From a virus (lineage: Duplodnaviria; Heunggongvirae; Uroviricota; Caudoviricetes), in the IMG/VR virus record IMGVR_UViG_2698536535_000003: 10,462 nucleotides of DNA, one strand, 5' to 3'. Each line of letters opens with the position of its first letter. Position 1 is the stretch's first letter. This document shows positions 437-10,354 of this stretch, one piece after another. The position numbers and the translations under genes were made by a program. The notes under the pieces are model-generated. The model worked only from the letters and a program-made list of their open reading frames with translations. It was not told the DNA's origin and did no database searches.

Positions 437-1600
437 TTACACATCATTAGTACCTTCCTTATTTTTTGACTGGGACAAATTTGGGACCGATGGGTTCAGG
501 ATCGAGTCTATTTGCCGTGCGTGTTCGGTAAGGTGATTAGGTGCAAGGTGAGCATATCGACGAACCATTTCGATAGACTCCCAGCCTCCCATTTCCTGTA
601 ACACTGACAACGGGACTCCGGCTTGAACCAGCCAACTTGCCCAGGTGTGTCTCAAGTCGTGAAATCTGAAATCATCAATACCAGCCCGTCTCAGAGCCGC
701 TTTCCAGGCTGTGTTTGCGTCATACCGCATCTTCCTTACTGTTGGCGCTTTCGTTCCGTCTGGTTTGGTACAGCTTTCCTTGTACACAAATACCCAACGG
801 TGATGATTACCGATTTGTTTTTTCAATACGCGACATGCAGTATCATTCAGCGCAACGCCAATTGCGCGGTTTGATTTACTCTCTTCCGGGTTTATCCATG
901 CCACCCGGCGCTGCATATCTATTTGTTGCCATTCAAGGTTGATGATGTTCGAGCGTCTTAAGCCTGTTGCCAGTGCAAATTCAACAACAGACTTTAATGG
1001 CTCCGGACATTCATCAATCAGCCTTTGTGCTTCATGGGGCTCCAGCCAGCGGATCCGTTTATTCTTTGGTTGAGGCACTTTAATAATTGGTGCCTTATCG
1101 AGCATTTTCCATTCACGCTCTGCGGCTCTTAGCAGGGCCTTTATAAATGAAAGATGCGTAGCCTTCGTTGCAACGGACGCTGGTTTTGGCGTGTATTCTG
1201 GAACAGGTTTCCCTTTTTTTCTGCATGCTTCTGCCCTGAGTTTCCAGTTTTCCTCATGACGCCGGTTCGTCATTTTCTGCATTGCTGAATAAATTTTTGA
1301 TTCAGTAATGTCTCTTAGTTGCATTCCTGCGAAATGTTGAAGCCAGAATCCGATCCGGCTTTTGTCATCGTCCAGTGATTTCTTATGTGCTTTCTCTTCG
1401 AGCCACCTGACACACGCTTCCTCAAACGTCATATCAGGTATTTCACCAAGTTTGCTGACCCGCCATGCTTCAGCCTTTAGCTTGTCATGGAGCTCTGTCG
1501 CCTGCCTTTTGTCCTTTGTTCCAAGAGACTGTTTAAATCTTTTACCGTTCGGCAATGTGAAACTGGCGTACCATATTTCACTTCTGCGGAAGAGTGACAT
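437..1600 (-). CDS. int: Tyrosine-type site-specific integrase (P22 Int-like, 387 aa)
   Basis: ORF-track protein with C-terminal catalytic-region motifs ([10 protein letters not shown]..., [33 protein letters not shown]). From memory it is near-identical over its length to phage P22 Int. ATG at 1600 with AGAGGAAAG upstream; TAA stop at 437..439. Confidence 0.95.
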
Positions 1601-2343: not shown

Positions 2344-2395
2344 CTTCCATTAATCCCTGAATTGTTGGTTAATACGCTTGAGGATGAATGCGAAC

Positions 2396-2419
2396 AATAA
2401 AAAAGGAGCCTGTAGCTCC
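2396..2419 (-). terminator. Candidate intrinsic terminator (minus strand)
   Basis: Stem GGAGC (2405..2409) / GCTCC (2415..2419) with a 5-nt loop; on the minus-strand RNA it is followed by UUUUUUAUU (plus-strand A-run 2396..2404). Lies between the 2442..2723 gene and the TraR-like gene. Confidence 0.4.
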
Positions 2420-2441
2420 CTGATGATTTTGCTTTTCATGT

Positions 2442-2733: not shown

Positions 2734-3291
2734 TCATGCAGCCTCCCGACGGGCAAGAATCCTTGAGCCGAACGCCATCAACTCTCCACGATCAACGGTC
2801 GTAAAGTGGCAGTGTGTACGGGGGTATGGGTGCCAGATAATGAGCATCGAGCCTTTATTATTTCCACTGACGGGTTTCTCAGTGAGTGGGTTAATAAATG
2901 CCAGTCGTCCTGCCGTGATGAATCTGACCTCACTGGCGGTTTGTATCGCTTCATGAAACCATCCGACAGATGTGTCAGCAGGCAATAACATTACACATCC
3001 CACACTACTGAATTTGTTTTCAGTGGCTGCCTTTTTCACAAAAGGGGAAATATTGCTGTATGGTGGATTCAACCAGACATAACCAGAGGCATATCCCATT
3101 GCTTCAGGCCATGAAGTGGTTAATGTGTTCTGCTCCTGTGAGATAAAAAGCCGACATAGTCGGTTTTTTTCGCTGGCGGCAGCATCAAGTTGAAAAACGA
3201 ACTCTGCATTAAGCGCAGCAAAAATCTCTGGTGGTGTGCGCCAGCTGTCGCGATGTTCGGCAGGAGTATTGCTTCCGGTGAAATCAGTCAT
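2734..3291 (-). CDS. Phage-type DNA N6-adenine methyltransferase (orphan, no cognate restriction enzyme in window)
   Basis: 185-aa product with NPPY catalytic motif (WLNPPYSN) and an N-terminal region (RDSWRTPPEIFAALNAEFVFQLDAAA) typical of small phage Dam-like amino-methyltransferases. ATG at 3291. Confidence 0.8.
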   Translation of the reverse strand: MTDFTGSNTPAEHRDSWRTPPEIFAALNAEFVFQLDAAASEKNRLCRLFISQEQNTLTTSWPEAMGYASGYVWLNPPYSNISPFVKKAATENKFSSVGCVMLLPADTSVGWFHEAIQTASEVRFITAGRLAFINPLTEKPVSGNNKGSMLIIWHPYPRTHCHFTTVDRGELMAFGSRILARREAA

Positions 3292-4909: not shown

Positions 4910-5206
4910 TTATACCTCTGAATCAATATCAACCTGATGGTGAGCAATGGTTTCAACCATGTACAGGATGTGTTCTGCCATGCGCTCCTGAAACTCAACA
5001 TCGTCATCAAACGCACGGGTAATGGCTTTTTTGCTGGCCCCGTGGCGTTGCAAATGATCGATGCATAGCGATTCAAACAGGTGCTGGGGCAGGCCTTTTT
5101 CCATGTCGTCTGCCAGTTCTGCCTCTTTCTCTTCACGGGCGATCTGCTGGTAGTGACGCGCCCAGCTCTGAGCCTCAAGACGATCCTGAATGTAATAAGC
5201 GTTCAT
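4910..5206 (-). CDS. gam: Gam, host RecBCD inhibitor, short form only (98 aa)
   Basis: [21 protein letters not shown]...[10 protein letters not shown] matches lambda GamS from memory. ATG at 5206 is preceded by AGGAGG with a 6-nt spacer. The reading frame upstream is closed by an in-frame TAA at 5261..5263 with no intervening start codon, so the longer lambda-style ORF cannot be made here. Confidence 0.95.
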
Positions 5207-5281: not shown

Positions 5282-5692
5282 TTAGTGATTTAGGCCGTTG
5301 CCGCGTCCGTCGAGAAAAACTTCCACGAGCAAATCACGGGTATAAGTGCGCTCGATGCCGCGATGCAGATATAGCCGTCCGCGTAAATTAGCTGATGCAG
5401 TCCAGGTACCATCTTTGTGTTTGACCAGCATTCCTGGCATGACCGCACCGCGATTAACGGTCTGCGTTCCGTAATGTTGATGAACCATAAAAACTCCTGC
5501 CCGTAAGCTGGGCTGCTGAACATATATAGACTTCTGCGCGTATTCAGGCGGTGGATGGCCGCCGGTTGTCATAACTAAGCCGCCTCGTTGAAGCGACTGA
5601 GGTATGAAGTGTTGAGTTGATTTCAGCTGGTCACACCGACGTTCACGCGTCCGCTTCACCCCTCGCACTCCCCGGAGCCTGCTGAAATTCAA
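5282..5692 (-). CDS. Hypothetical protein in the first position of the pL operon (N slot); arginine-rich N-terminus; start codon uncertain
   Basis: ORF-track frame starts at a TTG (5692); candidate GTG starts at codons 8 and 11 and an ATG at 5572. N-terminal segment [15 protein letters not shown] is arginine-rich, loosely like ARM motifs of N antiterminators. No family recognised. An alternative-frame ORF (5290..5523) overlaps it. Confidence 0.35.
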
Positions 5693-5710
5693 GCTGCGGA
5701 TCTAAGCGGT

Positions 5711-5760
5711 CATCGCAACGGTGAATCAGGTGGTTGCCGTATCGTTGTGTTGTTGCGATG
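5711..5760. repeat. 9-bp perfect inverted repeat (CATCGCAAC ... GTTGCGATG) with 32-nt spacer in the pL leader region
   Basis: CATCGCAAC at 5711..5719 and its exact reverse complement GTTGCGATG at 5752..5760. Lies between the putative pL and the first early-left ORF. Confidence 0.5.
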
Positions 5761-5766
5761 AATTTA

Positions 5767-5830
5767 TTTAAAACTATAGTTGTTTTATCGTCAACAACAA
5801 AAGTTGTTTTACTGGTTGTTTTAGATATAA
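5767..5830 (-). promoter_or_regulatory. Putative pL promoter with overlapping oL operator half-sites
   Basis: On the minus strand TTGACG (5794..5789), 17-nt spacer, TTAAAT (5772..5767). The region carries repeated GTTGTT/AACAAC half-sites (AGTTGTTttatcgtcAACAAC, AGTTGTTtt, ACTGGTTGTT x2) that match the arms of the oR palindrome at 8424..8448. Confidence 0.4.
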
Positions 5831-5996: not shown

Positions 5997-6824
5997 TTAA
6001 ACTTGGGGAAGTATTTTTTTTGCAAAATCAATAGTTTCTTTGTGGTTGGATGCAGGTATATGATTTATTTTCTTAGCATCCATAGTTCTCTTTATGATGT
6101 CAATAACTTTGCTTTGGCCTGAGTTTGGTGATTCAGGAGTTTCAATTGTGAATAAAATGTCATCAAGTGAAAGCAGGTTTTCTTCTGCTGCTCGAGTTAT
6201 TCTCATCACCCAAGTATCACTATGCTCCATCATTTTTCCTGGTTCAGCTTGAGTGAATGCCAGAGGTTTGATGGCACATTGGATCCTGTCATGCTTCTTG
6301 GCGACCAATGGCATTGAGAACTTTGCGAAATACCCATCAATGGTTGCTTGTTTGAAGACGTTCTTCAATCCATCTATTCTATCGATACTTCGTTTTAGCT
6401 CTCTGGCTAGAACATCTTCACGGCGCTCTTTTGTGTAGTCAGAGTGGTTTACATATTTATTGTAAATGCGGGCCAGCTCTTCTTTTGGGTTTTCGCTGAG
6501 AATCACTCTCGTAGAACTGAACTGAAAAATTGATTCTTTTTTGTTTGTAAAATATCTGAAGAATTGTGCAAGTTGTTGATGTCCAACAATCTGGGTCGCA
6601 TGCATTTTTGCGAATTGTAGTTCTCTTTGTATTGAGTCTTTTGCTACAGGGAAAATACAATCATCATGGAAAAAATTCTTTACACGAGAGTCATTTCGCT
6701 TTGTGAGCTGGAAATCAAAGTAATTTTCTTTTGGCGCGCACAGAAGTACGCCTATGTTTGCGAACTCTTCAGTCTCCGCATAAGGCGCATAGCGAACGAT
6801 GCTATATAGGCATGGAGTTGTCAT
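5997..6824 (-). CDS. DUF3037-like protein (275 aa), second gene of a two-gene moron
   Basis: Track ORF starts at a TTG (6839); ATG at 6824..6822 overlaps the stop of the upstream gene (ATGA). The N-terminus MTTPCLYSIVRYAPYAETEEFANIGVLL resembles the conserved N-terminal signature I recall for DUF3037-family proteins. GC content is about 33% in sampled 60-nt windows versus about 55% in bet. Confidence 0.7.
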   Translation of the reverse strand: MTTPCLYSIVRYAPYAETEEFANIGVLLCAPKENYFDFQLTKRNDSRVKNFFHDDCIFPVAKDSIQRELQFAKMHATQIVGHQQLAQFFRYFTNKKESIFQFSSTRVILSENPKEELARIYNKYVNHSDYTKERREDVLARELKRSIDRIDGLKNVFKQATIDGYFAKFSMPLVAKKHDRIQCAIKPLAFTQAEPGKMMEHSDTWVMRITRAAEENLLSLDDILFTIETPESPNSGQSKVIDIIKRTMDAKKINHIPASNHKETIDFAKKILPQV

Positions 6825-7570
6825 TCTATTGCGCTCCAAAATTCATCACAATCACCTTTGTCTAGCGTAGTGCAGACAAAAGGTAAAAACTCCTCATCTA
6901 CTATCCACTCTTCTGGAATTTCGTCAAGGATAGCAGGAAGCTTGTGTAAACTGTTAACGACCCTCTGGCGGTACTCTACGCGATCCACTAAATCATATTG
7001 CCATTTGCGGTTACCAGGGCCGTACACGTGCACAGAAAAATCTTCAGGTCCAGCATTCTGATCAAATGAGAGATTATGGTCAATCAGATAATACTTATCG
7101 TTACTGATGTCATAAAGGATGTTAACGTTTCCACCTTTGTCAGTAAGCGTTCTGTCTGCATTTAATATCCATTTATCAAAAACATAGATTAATTTTTGCT
7201 GTTCGACTGGGATGATCGTTTCGTTTCTTGACTGCGTAAACGTTAACGCTATTGCACCGTCAATGAACAATGAAGCAAAGGCATATCCTGTACAAATTTG
7301 TTGCTGCAGATCAGGTGAGTACTCTATAAGTTCCTCTGGCACAAATACGATTTTAAAGTCAGGTAAAGGAAGGCCGATATCATTAGCCAAACATGCCGAA
7401 ATGAACTCAGCTAAGAGATTTTTCGGGGGCATTGATGGTTTTGACTTCAAAACATACAACTGCCCATCATCACATTTGCAAAGAAATGGCTGAGTGGAAC
7501 CTTCATTGATGCGACGTATTACCTCAACGACATTAGGTATTGCACTATTGCTGCTCGCTACGCACTCCAT
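6821..7570 (-). CDS. Atypical protein kinase-fold protein (HipA/PI3-4K-like motifs, 249 aa), first gene of a two-gene moron
   Basis: Track start is a GTG at 7573; the second codon is ATG (7570..7568) with AAGGG 6 nt upstream. Motifs: a nucleotide-binding-like N-terminal segment (INEGSTQPFLCKCDDGQLYVLKSK, with Lys in YVLK), a catalytic-loop-like FDKWILNADRTLTDKGGN, and a downstream LIDHN metal-binding-like segment. Stop TGA at 6823..6821 overlaps the next start. Confidence 0.65.
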   Translation of the reverse strand: MECVASSNSAIPNVVEVIRRINEGSTQPFLCKCDDGQLYVLKSKPSMPPKNLLAEFISACLANDIGLPLPDFKIVFVPEELIEYSPDLQQQICTGYAFASLFIDGAIALTFTQSRNETIIPVEQQKLIYVFDKWILNADRTLTDKGGNVNILYDISNDKYYLIDHNLSFDQNAGPEDFSVHVYGPGNRKWQYDLVDRVEYRQRVVNSLHKLPAILDEIPEEWIVDEEFLPFVCTTLDKGDCDEFWSAIE

Positions 7571-7692
7571 CACTAACCCTTATGTGATTCAAGTCTTCCA
7601 TCTCATTACTCCGCATCTCAAAGAGCGGTTTAACACTGCGTGTTTAAAGAAAAACAACAGGCCTATTGCTGTAACTGTTTTTTAGCCTCACT

Positions 7693-8382
7693 TTAACCAT
7701 GCTTCCTATATGTTTGCGGCATGCTCCCAATAACCTTACCGAAGATGAACACCCGGTTCATCTCGTCTTTCTCGATCGGGTCCCACGGTGAGTAGCTCTT
7801 GTTATCAGAAATAACCAGCAGCTTATCCTTCATCATTTGCAGGCGCTTTACATGGGCGGTGTCGTCATACAGAAACGCATAGATACCATCACCGTCGAAA
7901 GATTTAACCGTGATATCAACGAACAGCAGATCACCTGGTTCGATCGTTCCTGACATGCTGTCACCACGCACGTTAATGATGCGGATATTTTCTGCCTTCC
8001 TACCATCGAACATGTGACGAGCATCGTCAAACGAGTACTCAACCGAGCGTAGAACTTCTACAAACTCACGGTTGATGACTCCCGGCCCGGCACTCACTTC
8101 TATATCAAGAACGTCAATCTTAAAGTATTTGGAATGGCTGACAGTTGATTGTATTGGTTGCACTGTACTGTCTGACATATTTCCAACGCCAGAAGATAAC
8201 CATTCTGCGCGCACACCCAAAGCGTTCGCGATCTCCACGATTTTAGTTGTTTGGTTAGCTTTCCCTGTTTCGATTTTCTGAATAGCAGCTTGGCTAACCC
8301 CGACCAAATCCCCAAGCGCCTTTTGTGTAAGGCCTCGCGCTAATCTGGCTTCTTTAAGTCTTTCTGAGAGTGTTGTTTTCAT
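7693..8382 (-). CDS. cI-type prophage repressor: N-terminal HTH-XRE DNA-binding domain plus C-terminal S24 (LexA-like) autopeptidase domain
   Basis: From ATG at 8382..8380: MKTTLSERLKEARLARGLTQKALGDLVGVSQAAIQKIETGKANQT (HTH), then VRGDSMSGTIEPGDLLFVD (Ser nucleophile) and AHVKRLQMM (catalytic Lys). The track start at 8448 adds 22 N-terminal residues with no support. No SD before the ATG. Confidence 0.85.
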   Translation of the reverse strand: MKTTLSERLKEARLARGLTQKALGDLVGVSQAAIQKIETGKANQTTKIVEIANALGVRAEWLSSGVGNMSDSTVQPIQSTVSHSKYFKIDVLDIEVSAGPGVINREFVEVLRSVEYSFDDARHMFDGRKAENIRIINVRGDSMSGTIEPGDLLFVDITVKSFDGDGIYAFLYDDTAHVKRLQMMKDKLLVISDNKSYSPWDPIEKDEMNRVFIFGKVIGSMPQTYRKHG

Positions 8383-8486
8383 AGACCAAATGTACAACCA
8401 AGGTTTTATTACATCAAACGAAAATGGTTGTTGACTAAAAACAACCATGGTTTTAATCTTGATTCAGATTAACCACGGAGGTTGTT
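8383..8486. promoter_or_regulatory. Divergent immunity control region (oR operators with pRM-like and pR-like promoters)
   Basis: Perfect palindrome ATGGTTGTT-N7-AACAACCAT at 8424..8448 overlaps a plus-strand TTGACT (8431..8436) with a 17-nt spacer to TAATCT (8454..8459), then GGAGG (8477..8481) and the cro ATG at 8487. On the minus strand TTGATG (8417..8412), 17 nt, TACATT (8394..8389) ends 6 nt before the repressor ATG. An additional half-site-like ACAACCAaGGTT sits at 8394..8405. Confidence 0.55.
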
Positions 8487-8729: not shown

Positions 8730-8775
8730 CGCTCTTTAACAATAAGCAATCAACTTAACAGACTGATTAACAGTC
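8730..8775 (+). promoter_or_regulatory. Putative nutR-like site: boxA-like CGCTCTTTA plus boxB-like hairpin
   Basis: CGCTCTTTA at 8730..8738 (lambda boxA consensus CGCTCTTA). Perfect hairpin GACTG-ATTAA-CAGTC at 8761..8775 (5-bp stem, 5-nt loop, no U-run after it), in the cro-cII intergenic position where lambda carries nutR. Confidence 0.3.
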
Positions 8776-8798
8776 AATTCAAACTAAAGGAATTAATT

Positions 8799-9424: not shown

Positions 9425-10354
9425 ATGGCAAACACTGCTGAGATATTCAATTTTCCAGTGCCGGATGTGGCACAAAAGGAGCCGCGCGTGGCAGATCTCG
9501 ATGATGGTTATACGCGCATTGCAAATGAGTTGCTGGAAGCTGTAATGCTGGCCGGATTAACACAGCACCAGCTTCTGGTCTTCCTGGCTGTCATGCGCAA
9601 AACATATGGCTTTAATAAAAAACTGGATTGGGTGAGCAACGAGCAACTTTCCGAGTTGACCGGGATATTGCCGCACAAGTGTTCTGCTGCAAAAAGTGTT
9701 CTGGTAAAGCGTGGGATTTTTATTCAGAGCGGGCGGAATATCGGCATTAATAATGTGGTCAGTGAATGGTCAAAATTACCCGAATCAGGTAAGAAAAATA
9801 AAGTTTACCTGAAAGAGGTAAATTTACCTGAATCAGGTAAGAAAAGTTTACCCAAATCAGGTAAAGGCACTTACCCGAATCAGGTAAACACAAAAGACAA
9901 ACTAACAAAAGACAATATAAAACCTTATTCGTCCGAGAATTCTGGCGAATCCTCTGACCTGCCAGAAAACGACCTTCCTGTGGTGAAAGCGGATGCTGCG
10001 ATTCAGAGCGGCAGCAAGTGGGGGACAGCAGAAGACCTGACCGCCGCAGAGTGGATGTTTGACATGGTGAAGACCATCGCGCCATCAGCCAGAAAACCGA
10101 ATTTTGCAGGGTGGGCTAACGATATCCGTCTGATGCGTGAACGTGATGGACGTAACCACCGCGACATGTGTGTACTGTTCCGCTGGGCCTGCCAGGACAA
10201 CTTCTGGTCCGGTAACGTGCTGAGTCCGGCCAAACTCCGCGACAAGTGGACCCAGCTCGAAATCAACCGGAACAAGCAACAGGCTGGCGTGACAGTCGGC
10301 AAACCAAAACTCGACCTGACAAACACTGACTGGATTTACGGGGTGGATCTATGA
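9425..10354 (+). CDS. O: Replication initiator, lambda O-like (origin-binding protein)
   Basis: From ATG 9425 (GGGAGG 4 nt upstream): MANTAEIFNFPV...RVADLDDGYTRIANELLEA...LVFLAVMRKTYGFNKKLDWVSNEQLSELTGILPHKC parallels the lambda O N-terminal domain. The gene contains the iteron array and its stop overlaps the P start (ATGA). The track start at 9335 is probably a 5' over-extension. Confidence 0.88.
   Translation: MANTAEIFNFPVPDVAQKEPRVADLDDGYTRIANELLEAVMLAGLTQHQLLVFLAVMRKTYGFNKKLDWVSNEQLSELTGILPHKCSAAKSVLVKRGIFIQSGRNIGINNVVSEWSKLPESGKKNKVYLKEVNLPESGKKSLPKSGKGTYPNQVNTKDKLTKDNIKPYSSENSGESSDLPENDLPVVKADAAIQSGSKWGTAEDLTAAEWMFDMVKTIAPSARKPNFAGWANDIRLMRERDGRNHRDMCVLFRWACQDNFWSGNVLSPAKLRDKWTQLEINRNKQQAGVTVGKPKLDLTNTDWIYGVDL
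9776..9887. repeat. Replication origin iterons (ori-lambda-like), five 17-bp palindromic repeats followed by an AT-rich segment
   Basis: TTACCCGAATCAGGTAA (9776..9792), degenerate TTACCTGAAAGAGGTAA (9805..9821), TTACCTGAATCAGGTAA (9824..9840), TTACCCAAATCAGGTAA (9848..9864), TTACCCGAATCAGGTAA (9871..9887). Each contains the palindrome TACCNGA-A-TCAGGTA. A-rich tract 9888..9925 follows. All lie in frame within the O-like gene. Confidence 0.85.

Follow-up and report, generated by a model that had tools for sequence, protein, structure and literature searches.

Kil as the probable first gene of the pL operon in a common N-less lambdoid prophage, and the leader that precedes it

Introduction

In phage lambda, the N gene and the nutL site lie directly after the early-left promoter pL, and the N protein contains the string TRRRERR. 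In the N-less lambdoid phages HK022 and HK639, a non-coding element, the put RNA, is instead found at or near the pL start. In phage phi80, the kil gene, a homologue of the one described below, is preceded by nutL, a distinct N gene, terminators and two small ORFs. How early transcription is managed in N-less lambdoid phages was left open in a study of phage LLS (Genome Research 2025, PMC12315714). For the kil gene, an experimentally studied relative is kilR of the Rac prophage, which is controlled by transcription termination and comes on once NusG-dependent termination is reduced (PMC5793797); the kilR 5'UTR also gives rise to a small RNA, KilS (PMC8175672). For isrK-orf45-anrP of Gifsy-1, a small upstream ORF has been described in a structured leader by which translation of the following gene is controlled (PMC4825925).

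We examined 10,462 nt of DNA from a member of the Caudoviricetes (IMG/VR record IMGVR_UViG_2698536535_000003), which is the early region of a lambdoid prophage and is referred to below, at its full length, as the window. In addition to int, the - strand carries exo, bet and gam, followed by a 136-codon ORF (5282..5692) that a mechanical ORF call opens at a TTG codon. Beyond this ORF lie a terminator, a DUF3037 protein, a HipA_2 kinase and cI, and the genes on the + strand include cro, a YdaT-type cII and O. An earlier note on this DNA had placed the 136-codon ORF in the N position, and had raised the possibility that its arginine-rich N-terminus marks a divergent antiterminator with an unusual nut structure. 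The position was correctly described, since the ORF is the first after pL; the arginine-rich N-terminus did not withstand comparison of natural variants, as shown below. Of 5426 complete E. coli genomes, 2239 (about 40%) contain the locus, and this very common E. coli prophage type has Q and is without N, nutL or put.

Results and Discussion

Organization of the early-left operon

The coordinates of the features discussed in this study are collected in Table 1. The pL promoter is flanked and overlapped by palindromic operators matching those at pR, the operator at 5768-5786 being the same 19-bp palindrome as the one found at 8438-8456 at pR. Downstream of pL the genes follow in the order kil, gam, bet and exo, and this order is identical in phi80, KO-TP1 and CobraSix. 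Phage PhiR5_1, which was recovered on an E. coli C host, has the same region; Q is annotated in its genome and N is not.

Table 1. Features of the window, with the basis on which each was assigned.
Feature	Position	Strand	Details and basis
int	437-1600	-	
gam	4910-5206	-	
kil (68 aa, Kil/KilR family)	5282..5488	-	profiles, BLASTP, PGAP CDS, codon-position polymorphism
Overlapping 77-aa ORF in another frame; spurious	5290..5523	-	no family match; polymorphisms follow the kil frame
Shine-Dalgarno AGGAG, 5 nt before ATG 5488	5494..5498	-	sequence reading
Small hairpin GCCC-AGCUUAC-GGGC adjoining the kil Shine-Dalgarno; last part of the module	5499..5513	-	MFE and centroid folds
Conserved block GCGCAGAAGUCU	5528..5539	-	common to HK639, KO-TP1, ENT1 and many IMG/VR loci
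Hairpin 2, GGCGG-CCAUCCA-CCGCC	5547..5563	-	occurrence in relatives
Mini-ORF AUG (MTTGGHPPP...)	5570..5572	-	runs in frame into kil here
Hairpin 1, 16-pair interrupted stem; base sequesters AUG 5572-5570	5569..5607	-	covariation
G-rich leader core read as 'arginine-rich' codons; untranslated	5640..5692	-	composition, indels, codon-position statistics
Leader cassette 'X', 5' part of the pL transcript	5609..5760	-	lineage-specific; composition, searches
10-bp inverted repeat, arms 5752-5761 and 5710-5719	5710..5761	-	exact, TCATCGCAAC/GTTGCGATGA
pL promoter	5766..5794	-	-35 TTGACG 5794-5789, 17-nt spacer, -10 TTAAAT 5771-5766

The conserved product of the first ORF is a Kil protein

Profile searches located the conserved part of the ORF product in its second half. 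PHROG 294 ('Kil protein for bacterial septation inhibition') matched residues 1-68 of Kil with E=1.3e-37, and NCBIfam model NF008465 ('FtsZ inhibitor protein'), which represents the Rac KilR family, matched with E=1.8e-17 over profile positions 1-70 of 73; a Pfam search of ORF 5282..5692 returned no family match. Position 1 of NF008465 falls on the ATG at 5488, which is residue 69 of the 136-residue conceptual protein, and BLASTP aligned the product with Rac KilR from residue 1 to residue 1 (36% identity, E=9e-13). The conserved protein thus begins at this ATG, and not at the non-ATG codon that the earlier note had taken as the start. Since the NF008465 score of 63 bits lies under the curated cut-off of 92, the product is a relative of Rac KilR from a separate subfamily and not its equivalog. 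Identity to phi80 Kil was 41% (E=5e-16). The gene resembles both of these counterparts in length (68 aa here, against 73 for Rac KilR and 69 for phi80 Kil), in aligning from the first residue, and in its early-left operon site upstream of gam, bet and exo; a Kil of 68-69 aa is also found in HK225, mEp237 and KO-TP1. It differs from the phi80 arrangement in that no gene comes between pL and kil here. The RefSeq/PGAP annotation of a 99.8%-identical prophage contains a 207-nt CDS for this gene (WP_000233576.1, 'phage encoded cell division inhibitor protein').

From these data we conclude, with a probability of roughly 0.85, that kil is the actual first gene of the pL operon and that it comprises only the last 68 codons of the 136-codon ORF; we hold the ORF as a whole, with equal confidence, to be a known gene with a frame-extension artefact. 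The other option of the earlier note, an unrelated early gene, kil-like or other, is the one borne out by the PHROG 294 and NF008465 matches. By homology, the product is predicted to be an inhibitor of FtsZ and cell division, and the 68-residue Kil would block FtsZ-dependent division after induction. Public annotations of the same gene conflict, giving 68 aa in RefSeq, 96 aa in PhiR5_1 and 139 aa in Perceval. The value of the finding is thus a corrective one, as the long annotated forms invent an arginine-rich protein that can be mistaken for an N-like factor.

The arginine-rich extension is untranslated leader

We compared natural variants of the region at 83 loci, which comprised 62 distinct sequences. 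Between the TTG at 5692 and the ATG at 5572, these carried insertions of 1 nt and of 5 nt, the latter in 4 sequence types, as well as a 1-nt deletion; the +1 and -1 indels lie inside the G-rich core and the +5 indel just downstream of it, at 5621. The 28 variable sites of the extension were distributed 12/8/8 over codon positions 1/2/3, with no excess at the third position. In kil, 20 of the 21 variable sites were at codon position 3, a figure to which the sampling contributes in part, since identity of the Kil protein was the basis on which the loci were selected. In one variant a mosaic junction falls inside the extension, no more than about 50 nt ahead of ATG 5488. Residues 1-68 of the 136-residue ORF gave no Pfam, NCBIfam or PHROG match, and reading of the sequence revealed no Shine-Dalgarno before the TTG or GTG candidate starts. 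The core contains 13-17 G per 30 nt, and its richness in G accounts for the Arg and Gly codons of the conceptual protein. The arginine-rich N-terminus is the pL 5' leader read accidentally in the kil frame, and the extension is non-coding. An overlapping alternative frame had also been pointed out, and the 77-aa ORF in question does exist, though it is spurious (Table 1).

These observations bear directly on the proposal that the 136-residue ORF is a divergent N-type antiterminator, the arginine-rich N-terminus of which would bind an unusual nut hairpin formed by the inverted repeat in the leader. The string KRTRERR is superficially like TRRRERR of lambda N and the ORF lies in the N position, but natural variants carry frameshifting indels in the extension, which lacks both a coding signature and a Shine-Dalgarno before its TTG and GTG codons. 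The C-terminal half of the ORF is Kil and the whole has no homology to any N; when the arginine-rich 40 residues were compared by tblastn with 50,697 phage records at E<=10, only near-identical loci were returned and no N protein. A consensus boxA, CGCTCTTTAACAA, located after cro (window 8730-8742), also speaks for the proposal. This boxA was the sole one found, in PhiR5_1 as well, and none was found in the leader when the pL strand was scanned with as many as 3 mismatches tolerated, which agrees with the observation in the earlier note that no clear boxA or boxB is present there. Furthermore, the boxB-like hairpin after cro is a window-specific 12-nt duplication that is missing in 22 of 27 boxA-bearing relatives. 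Because a profile search of the ORF product revealed clear homology to a non-antiterminator family (Kil/KilR), we consider the N-type reading refuted and assign it practically no weight. The likeness to lambda N/nutL extends to the map position directly after pL and to an arginine-rich string in a conceptual translation, and to nothing more; a translated arginine-rich peptide, N homology and a leader boxA/boxB are all lacking here.

Further candidates were rejected. The nut site after cro was set aside on account of the duplication just described, and the tblastn search gave no N that would have marked the extension as a fossil N gene. Two short blocks (15 nt and 13 nt) common to the pL leader and the post-cro region were dropped because, by our estimate, they are at about chance level in 4.2 kb.

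An inverted repeat at the 5' end of the pL transcript

A 9-bp inverted repeat, CATCGCAAC at 5711-5719 with its exact reverse complement at 5752-5760, had been reported in the leader. We confirmed this repeat and found that it is actually 10 bp in length, its arms being separated by 32 nt. It is one of three perfect separated-arm repeats (at least 9 bp, within 60 nt) in the window; we estimate the chance expectation at about 2 repeats of 9 bp per 10.4 kb and about 0.04 per 200-nt leader. The predicted pL +1, at about 5759, coincides with the left arm, and the immunity types are homologous from the predicted transcript start onward. For two of these types the RNA is predicted to open with AUCGCAAC..., the left arm of the repeat, so that in the pL transcript the repeat would form a 5'-terminal stem-loop. 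In the divergent L212 lineage both arms are retained, and the loop between them carries substitutions and an insertion of 8 nt; type c, the third immunity type, is without the left arm.

The repeat is real, and it is most likely a 5'-terminal hairpin of the mRNA. Transcription from pL would begin at about 5759 on the - strand, and the first ~270 nt would be an untranslated leader, followed by kil from ATG 5488 to its stop at 5282. It is a reasonable inference that the 10-bp hairpin, lying at the very 5' end, would protect the mRNA from that end.

N, nut and put are absent

We constructed a covariance model of put RNA from HK022 putL and putR and from HK639 putL, for which 27 put-like stretches were collected and aligned. 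All controls (HK022 putL, putR, HK639 putL and three others) were recovered, with scores of 48-105 bits. The best score in the window was 6.4 bits (E=0.73), on the wrong strand, and the model found nothing in PhiR5_1 (50 kb searched), Perceval or prophage L089. A put RNA in the leader was rejected on the basis that the model matched neither in the window nor in the related phages. The locus is like HK022 and HK639 in having a non-coding element at or near the pL start of an N-less lambdoid phage, but the two-stem put consensus, a thermodynamic signal and a second copy are all missing here.

Intrinsic terminators were also surveyed. None was detected between pL and kil, and from kil to the end of exo only weak terminator-like sites were present; the cro-Q interval of PhiR5_1 contained no convincing intrinsic terminator. 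A strong intrinsic terminator is located at 2421-2395, inside the pL operon and before xis and int, and read-through of this terminator is needed if int and xis are expressed from pL.

N, nut and put are thus absent from the region and from this phage type. The simplest reading is that the lineage lost N together with tL1, and that kil and the recombination genes are read directly from pL. In relatives, the conserved leader module described below usually follows directly on the tL1-type terminator with which N, or another first gene, is closed; with N and that terminator absent here, kil-gam-bet-exo would be read straight from pL, and no antitermination step would be needed for these genes.

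A lineage-specific cassette in the upstream part of the leader

A cassette of ~150 nt, specific to the lineage and devoid of nut or put features, would form the second part of the leader. Its ends are rich in C and poor in G and enclose a G-rich core; per 30 nt, the tract at 5760-5722 has 11 C and 4 G and that at 5630-5591 has 11 C and 2 G. A blastn search of phages with the first 160 nt of the leader, run with 'distant' settings, returned near-identical relatives only, and an 18-mer scan for the leader in 185,579 species genomes returned only chance matches, in high-GC organisms. The cassette was found only in closely related E. coli phages and prophages. Its one divergent lineage, L212, is a single sequence type.

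A small chance, in our estimate, attaches to the idea that the cassette (5760-5609) is a new cis-acting RNA that makes RNA polymerase resistant to termination or Rho, as an analogue of nutL plus N or of putL. The idea stays alive because of the slot that the cassette occupies: from the conserved 5' end of the transcript (CAUCG...) up to the AAUCAA...CAUACC junction, phi80 has nutL-N-tL1, and three relatives (L103, L104 and L206) have putL directly before the shared module. This phage type is moreover without N and without put, and has a strong terminator further down its pL operon. Within the cassette, the sub-block 5646-5620 is free of polymorphism and 5719-5694 has singletons only; such sub-blocks are a hint of function. 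The structural data do not point the same way, however. The fold-energy z-score of the cassette was -0.22, which is no better than shuffled sequence, and RNAalifold analysis of 47 cassette variants found one-sided changes only, with no double-sided compensatory changes. Similarity to put was apparent neither by covariance model nor by eye, and no second copy that could serve the pR operon was found in the PhiR5_1 genome. The need for an antitermination element is itself weak because no terminator was found from pL through kil-gam-bet-exo or from cro to Q in PhiR5_1, and homologues of the cassette are limited to one closely related E. coli lineage. It is similarly doubtful that the cassette, possibly together with the module at 5607-5499, represents a third kind of cis-acting RNA controlling early-left transcription. 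If it did, its anti-termination or anti-Rho activity would replace N/nut or put in a prophage family of ~40% of complete E. coli genomes.

A covarying RNA module precedes kil

The leader sequence at 5607-5499 is common to phi80, HK225, HK639, KO-TP1, ENT1, CobraSix, S9-5 and more than 100 IMG/VR contigs. Module sequences were collected by exact matching, so the set reflects this ascertainment. Among 35 distinct sequences of hairpin 1, 96.8% of cells were paired and 7 pairs changed on both sides. The covariation score was 0.45 as compared to 0.16 in shuffles, none of 500 of which reached 0.45, and a control with slid partners gave covariation of at most 0.068. Within the hairpin 5598-5590 pairs with 5586-5578, and at its base CAUA pairs with UAUG, thereby burying the AUG at 5572. 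Hairpin 2 occurs in phi80, HK225, HK639, KO-TP1, ENT1 and CobraSix, and S9-5 has a G-U pair in it. The small-hairpin block at the end of the module precedes different downstream genes in other phages.

Conservation of the module resides at the RNA (or DNA) level, because the peptide and frame of the mini-ORF vary while the motif is kept. Beyond its first 9 codons, the mini-ORF differs between phages in length, sequence and frame. The spacer in CobraSix is 1 nt shorter, so that the first codons and frame of the mini-ORF are changed and the RNA motif is kept. Similarly, the block GCGCAGAAGUCU must be conserved as nucleotides and not as peptide, since it is read by the mini-ORF in any of three frames, depending on the locus. 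With respect to kil, the mini-ORF is out of frame in L125-type variants, whose kil is unchanged; in L212 it ends after 10 codons, and in HK225, phi80 and KO-TP1 it ends before kil.

With respect to its surroundings, the upstream neighbour of the module in 128 distinct contexts was an intrinsic terminator in 89, cassette 'X' in 32 and a putL RNA in 3. An Rfam scan of the whole window and of 5470-5800 returned nothing relevant and no family for the module, and a literature search found no match to its core sequence. On balance, we favor the view that lambdoid early-left operons contain, in the covarying module by itself, a cis-regulatory RNA motif that has not been described before. Hairpin 1 of this ~110-nt module, which many lambdoid phages share, would bury the upstream AUG together with a GAGG, and the module would tune translation and/or Rho access before the first delayed-early gene. 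As a side result, the study has yielded a strongly covarying leader RNA module that usually sits right behind a tL1-type terminator and is absent from Rfam. Gifsy-1 isrK-orf45-anrP offers a likeness in that conserved nucleotides are combined with a variable peptide in a structured leader (PMC4825925). IsrK was rejected as an actual relative, as it belongs to a different locus (near the late antiterminator) and has no sequence relation to the module; the analogy is conceptual only.

The same AUG raises the question of a longer Kil. The frame is open from ATG 5572 (MTTGGHPPP...) into kil with a GAGG 10 nt upstream, and a 291-nt CDS is annotated in PV340545 and PP925829, giving the 96-aa form that is annotated in PhiR5_1. 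We nevertheless consider it improbable that this 96-aa isoform is real or co-produced in the lineage, as both the AUG and the GAGG are paired in the covarying hairpin 1 and the frame relation to kil is lost in the L125-type variants, L212, HK225, phi80 and KO-TP1. A tblastn similarity to HK225 does reach upstream to residue 29, but it is a nucleotide-level similarity and contains stop codons. Moreover, the 6 variable sites in 5572-5489 fall 2/2/2 over codon positions, and the alignments with the KilR profile and with Rac KilR both begin at residue 69 of the 136-residue ORF.

Rho-dependent attenuation as a possible role of the leader

With kil as the first gene, its untranslated and partly C-rich leader may be considered as an attenuator, in which Rho loading would limit expression of the toxic kil in the way that Rho and NusG silence Rac kilR, and in which the structured module and mini-ORF would set the level of read-through or translation. 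This proposal is compatible with the identification of kil and concerns the role of the leader only. We hold it tentatively and think it rather unlikely, though it has more in its favor than the antiterminator RNA or the 96-aa isoform. The two C-rich/G-poor tracts (5760-5722 and 5630-5591) are consistent with it, but a rut site is not provable by sequence. In phi80, a rho-dependent tL1B is annotated about 110-140 nt downstream of the homologous block. The activation of Rac kilR upon lowered NusG-dependent termination (PMC5793797) and the origin of KilS in the kilR 5'UTR (PMC8175672) provide a precedent, yet the Rac kilR leader is not homologous to the leader here. A further objection is that, for a phage without N, shutting off its recombination genes once it is induced would bring no benefit.

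Homology to the Rac kilR leader or KilS was rejected as a candidate explanation, as local alignment of our leader with the K-12 kilS/kilR leader scored 20, near the shuffled mean of 18.2 (sd 2.5). While there is no sequence similarity between the two leaders, they are alike in that each forms a long untranslated region before a toxic kil gene (PMC5793797; PMC8175672).

Structured RNA in the kil leader

The long untranslated pL leader that precedes kil contains a structured RNA module that is common to phi80, HK225, HK639, KO-TP1, ENT1, CobraSix, S9-5 and more than 100 IMG/VR contigs, and strong covariation was found in its first hairpin (5569-5607). Rfam holds no entry for this module, and its core sequence was absent from the papers covered by our literature search. 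Across lambdoid phages a tL1-type intrinsic terminator usually lies directly 5' of it. HK639-type put-like antiterminator RNAs are frequent among the IMG/VR lambdoid contigs that share the module (L103, L104, L206 and about 40 other loci), and in three contexts putL directly adjoins the module without an intervening gene.

In the K-12 annotation, the 5'UTR of kilR in the Rac prophage (locus L246) carries a 98-nt small RNA, KilS (2906-3003, minus strand), whose sequence is unrelated to that of the kil leader in the window; long non-coding leaders therefore differ between kil genes.

Antitermination signals and terminators

A perfect consensus boxA is found 13 nt 3' of the stop codon of cro; an N gene, a boxB and a pL-leader boxA are all missing from this phage type. 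This boxA may be a relic, or it may counteract Rho on its own, as boxA does in rrn operons. The window shares with a few relatives a 12-nt imperfect duplication that most relatives lack. The boxB-like hairpin that it generates, GACTGATTAACAGTC, could be misread as part of a nutR site. Within the leftward operon, a strong intrinsic terminator is located 5' of the TraR-like gene, xis and int, and no recognisable antitermination system was found in the phage that carries it.

Features of the early region (window coordinates)
Feature	Position	Strand	Remark
Intrinsic terminator, strong	2395-2421	-	AGGGAGCTACAGGCTCCTT then TTTTAT; inside leftward operon
Structured leader module	5499-5607	-	
Terminator of HipA_2/DUF3037 pair	5963-5942		end of gene pair
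DUF3037 protein	5997-6839	-	between cI and pL
HipA_2-family kinase	6821-7573	-	between cI and pL
cI, mechanical ORF	7693-8448	-	251 aa
boxA	8730-8742	+	CGCTCTTTAACAA
Imperfect duplication	about 8769-8780	+	ACTGATTAACAG
Iteron-like inverted and direct repeat cluster	9804-9888	+	TTTACCTGAATCAGGTAA and variants; within O gene

Other features of the early region

The HipA_2 kinase and DUF3037 genes occupy the same position as lambda rexAB. They are annotated as a HipA toxin and HipD antitoxin in PhiR5_1, a phage with the same region; a Panacea-domain gene pair fills their slot in a 99.8%-identical prophage. The PhiR5_1 annotation of cI is the same as the mechanical ORF; in NZ_CP063511 the homologue is given 229 aa by PGAP, for which the start would be MKTTLSERL. 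Like the 136-codon frame that ends in kil, the 251-aa ORF has probably been extended too far upstream. The repeats inside O match the expectation for a lambda-type replication origin.
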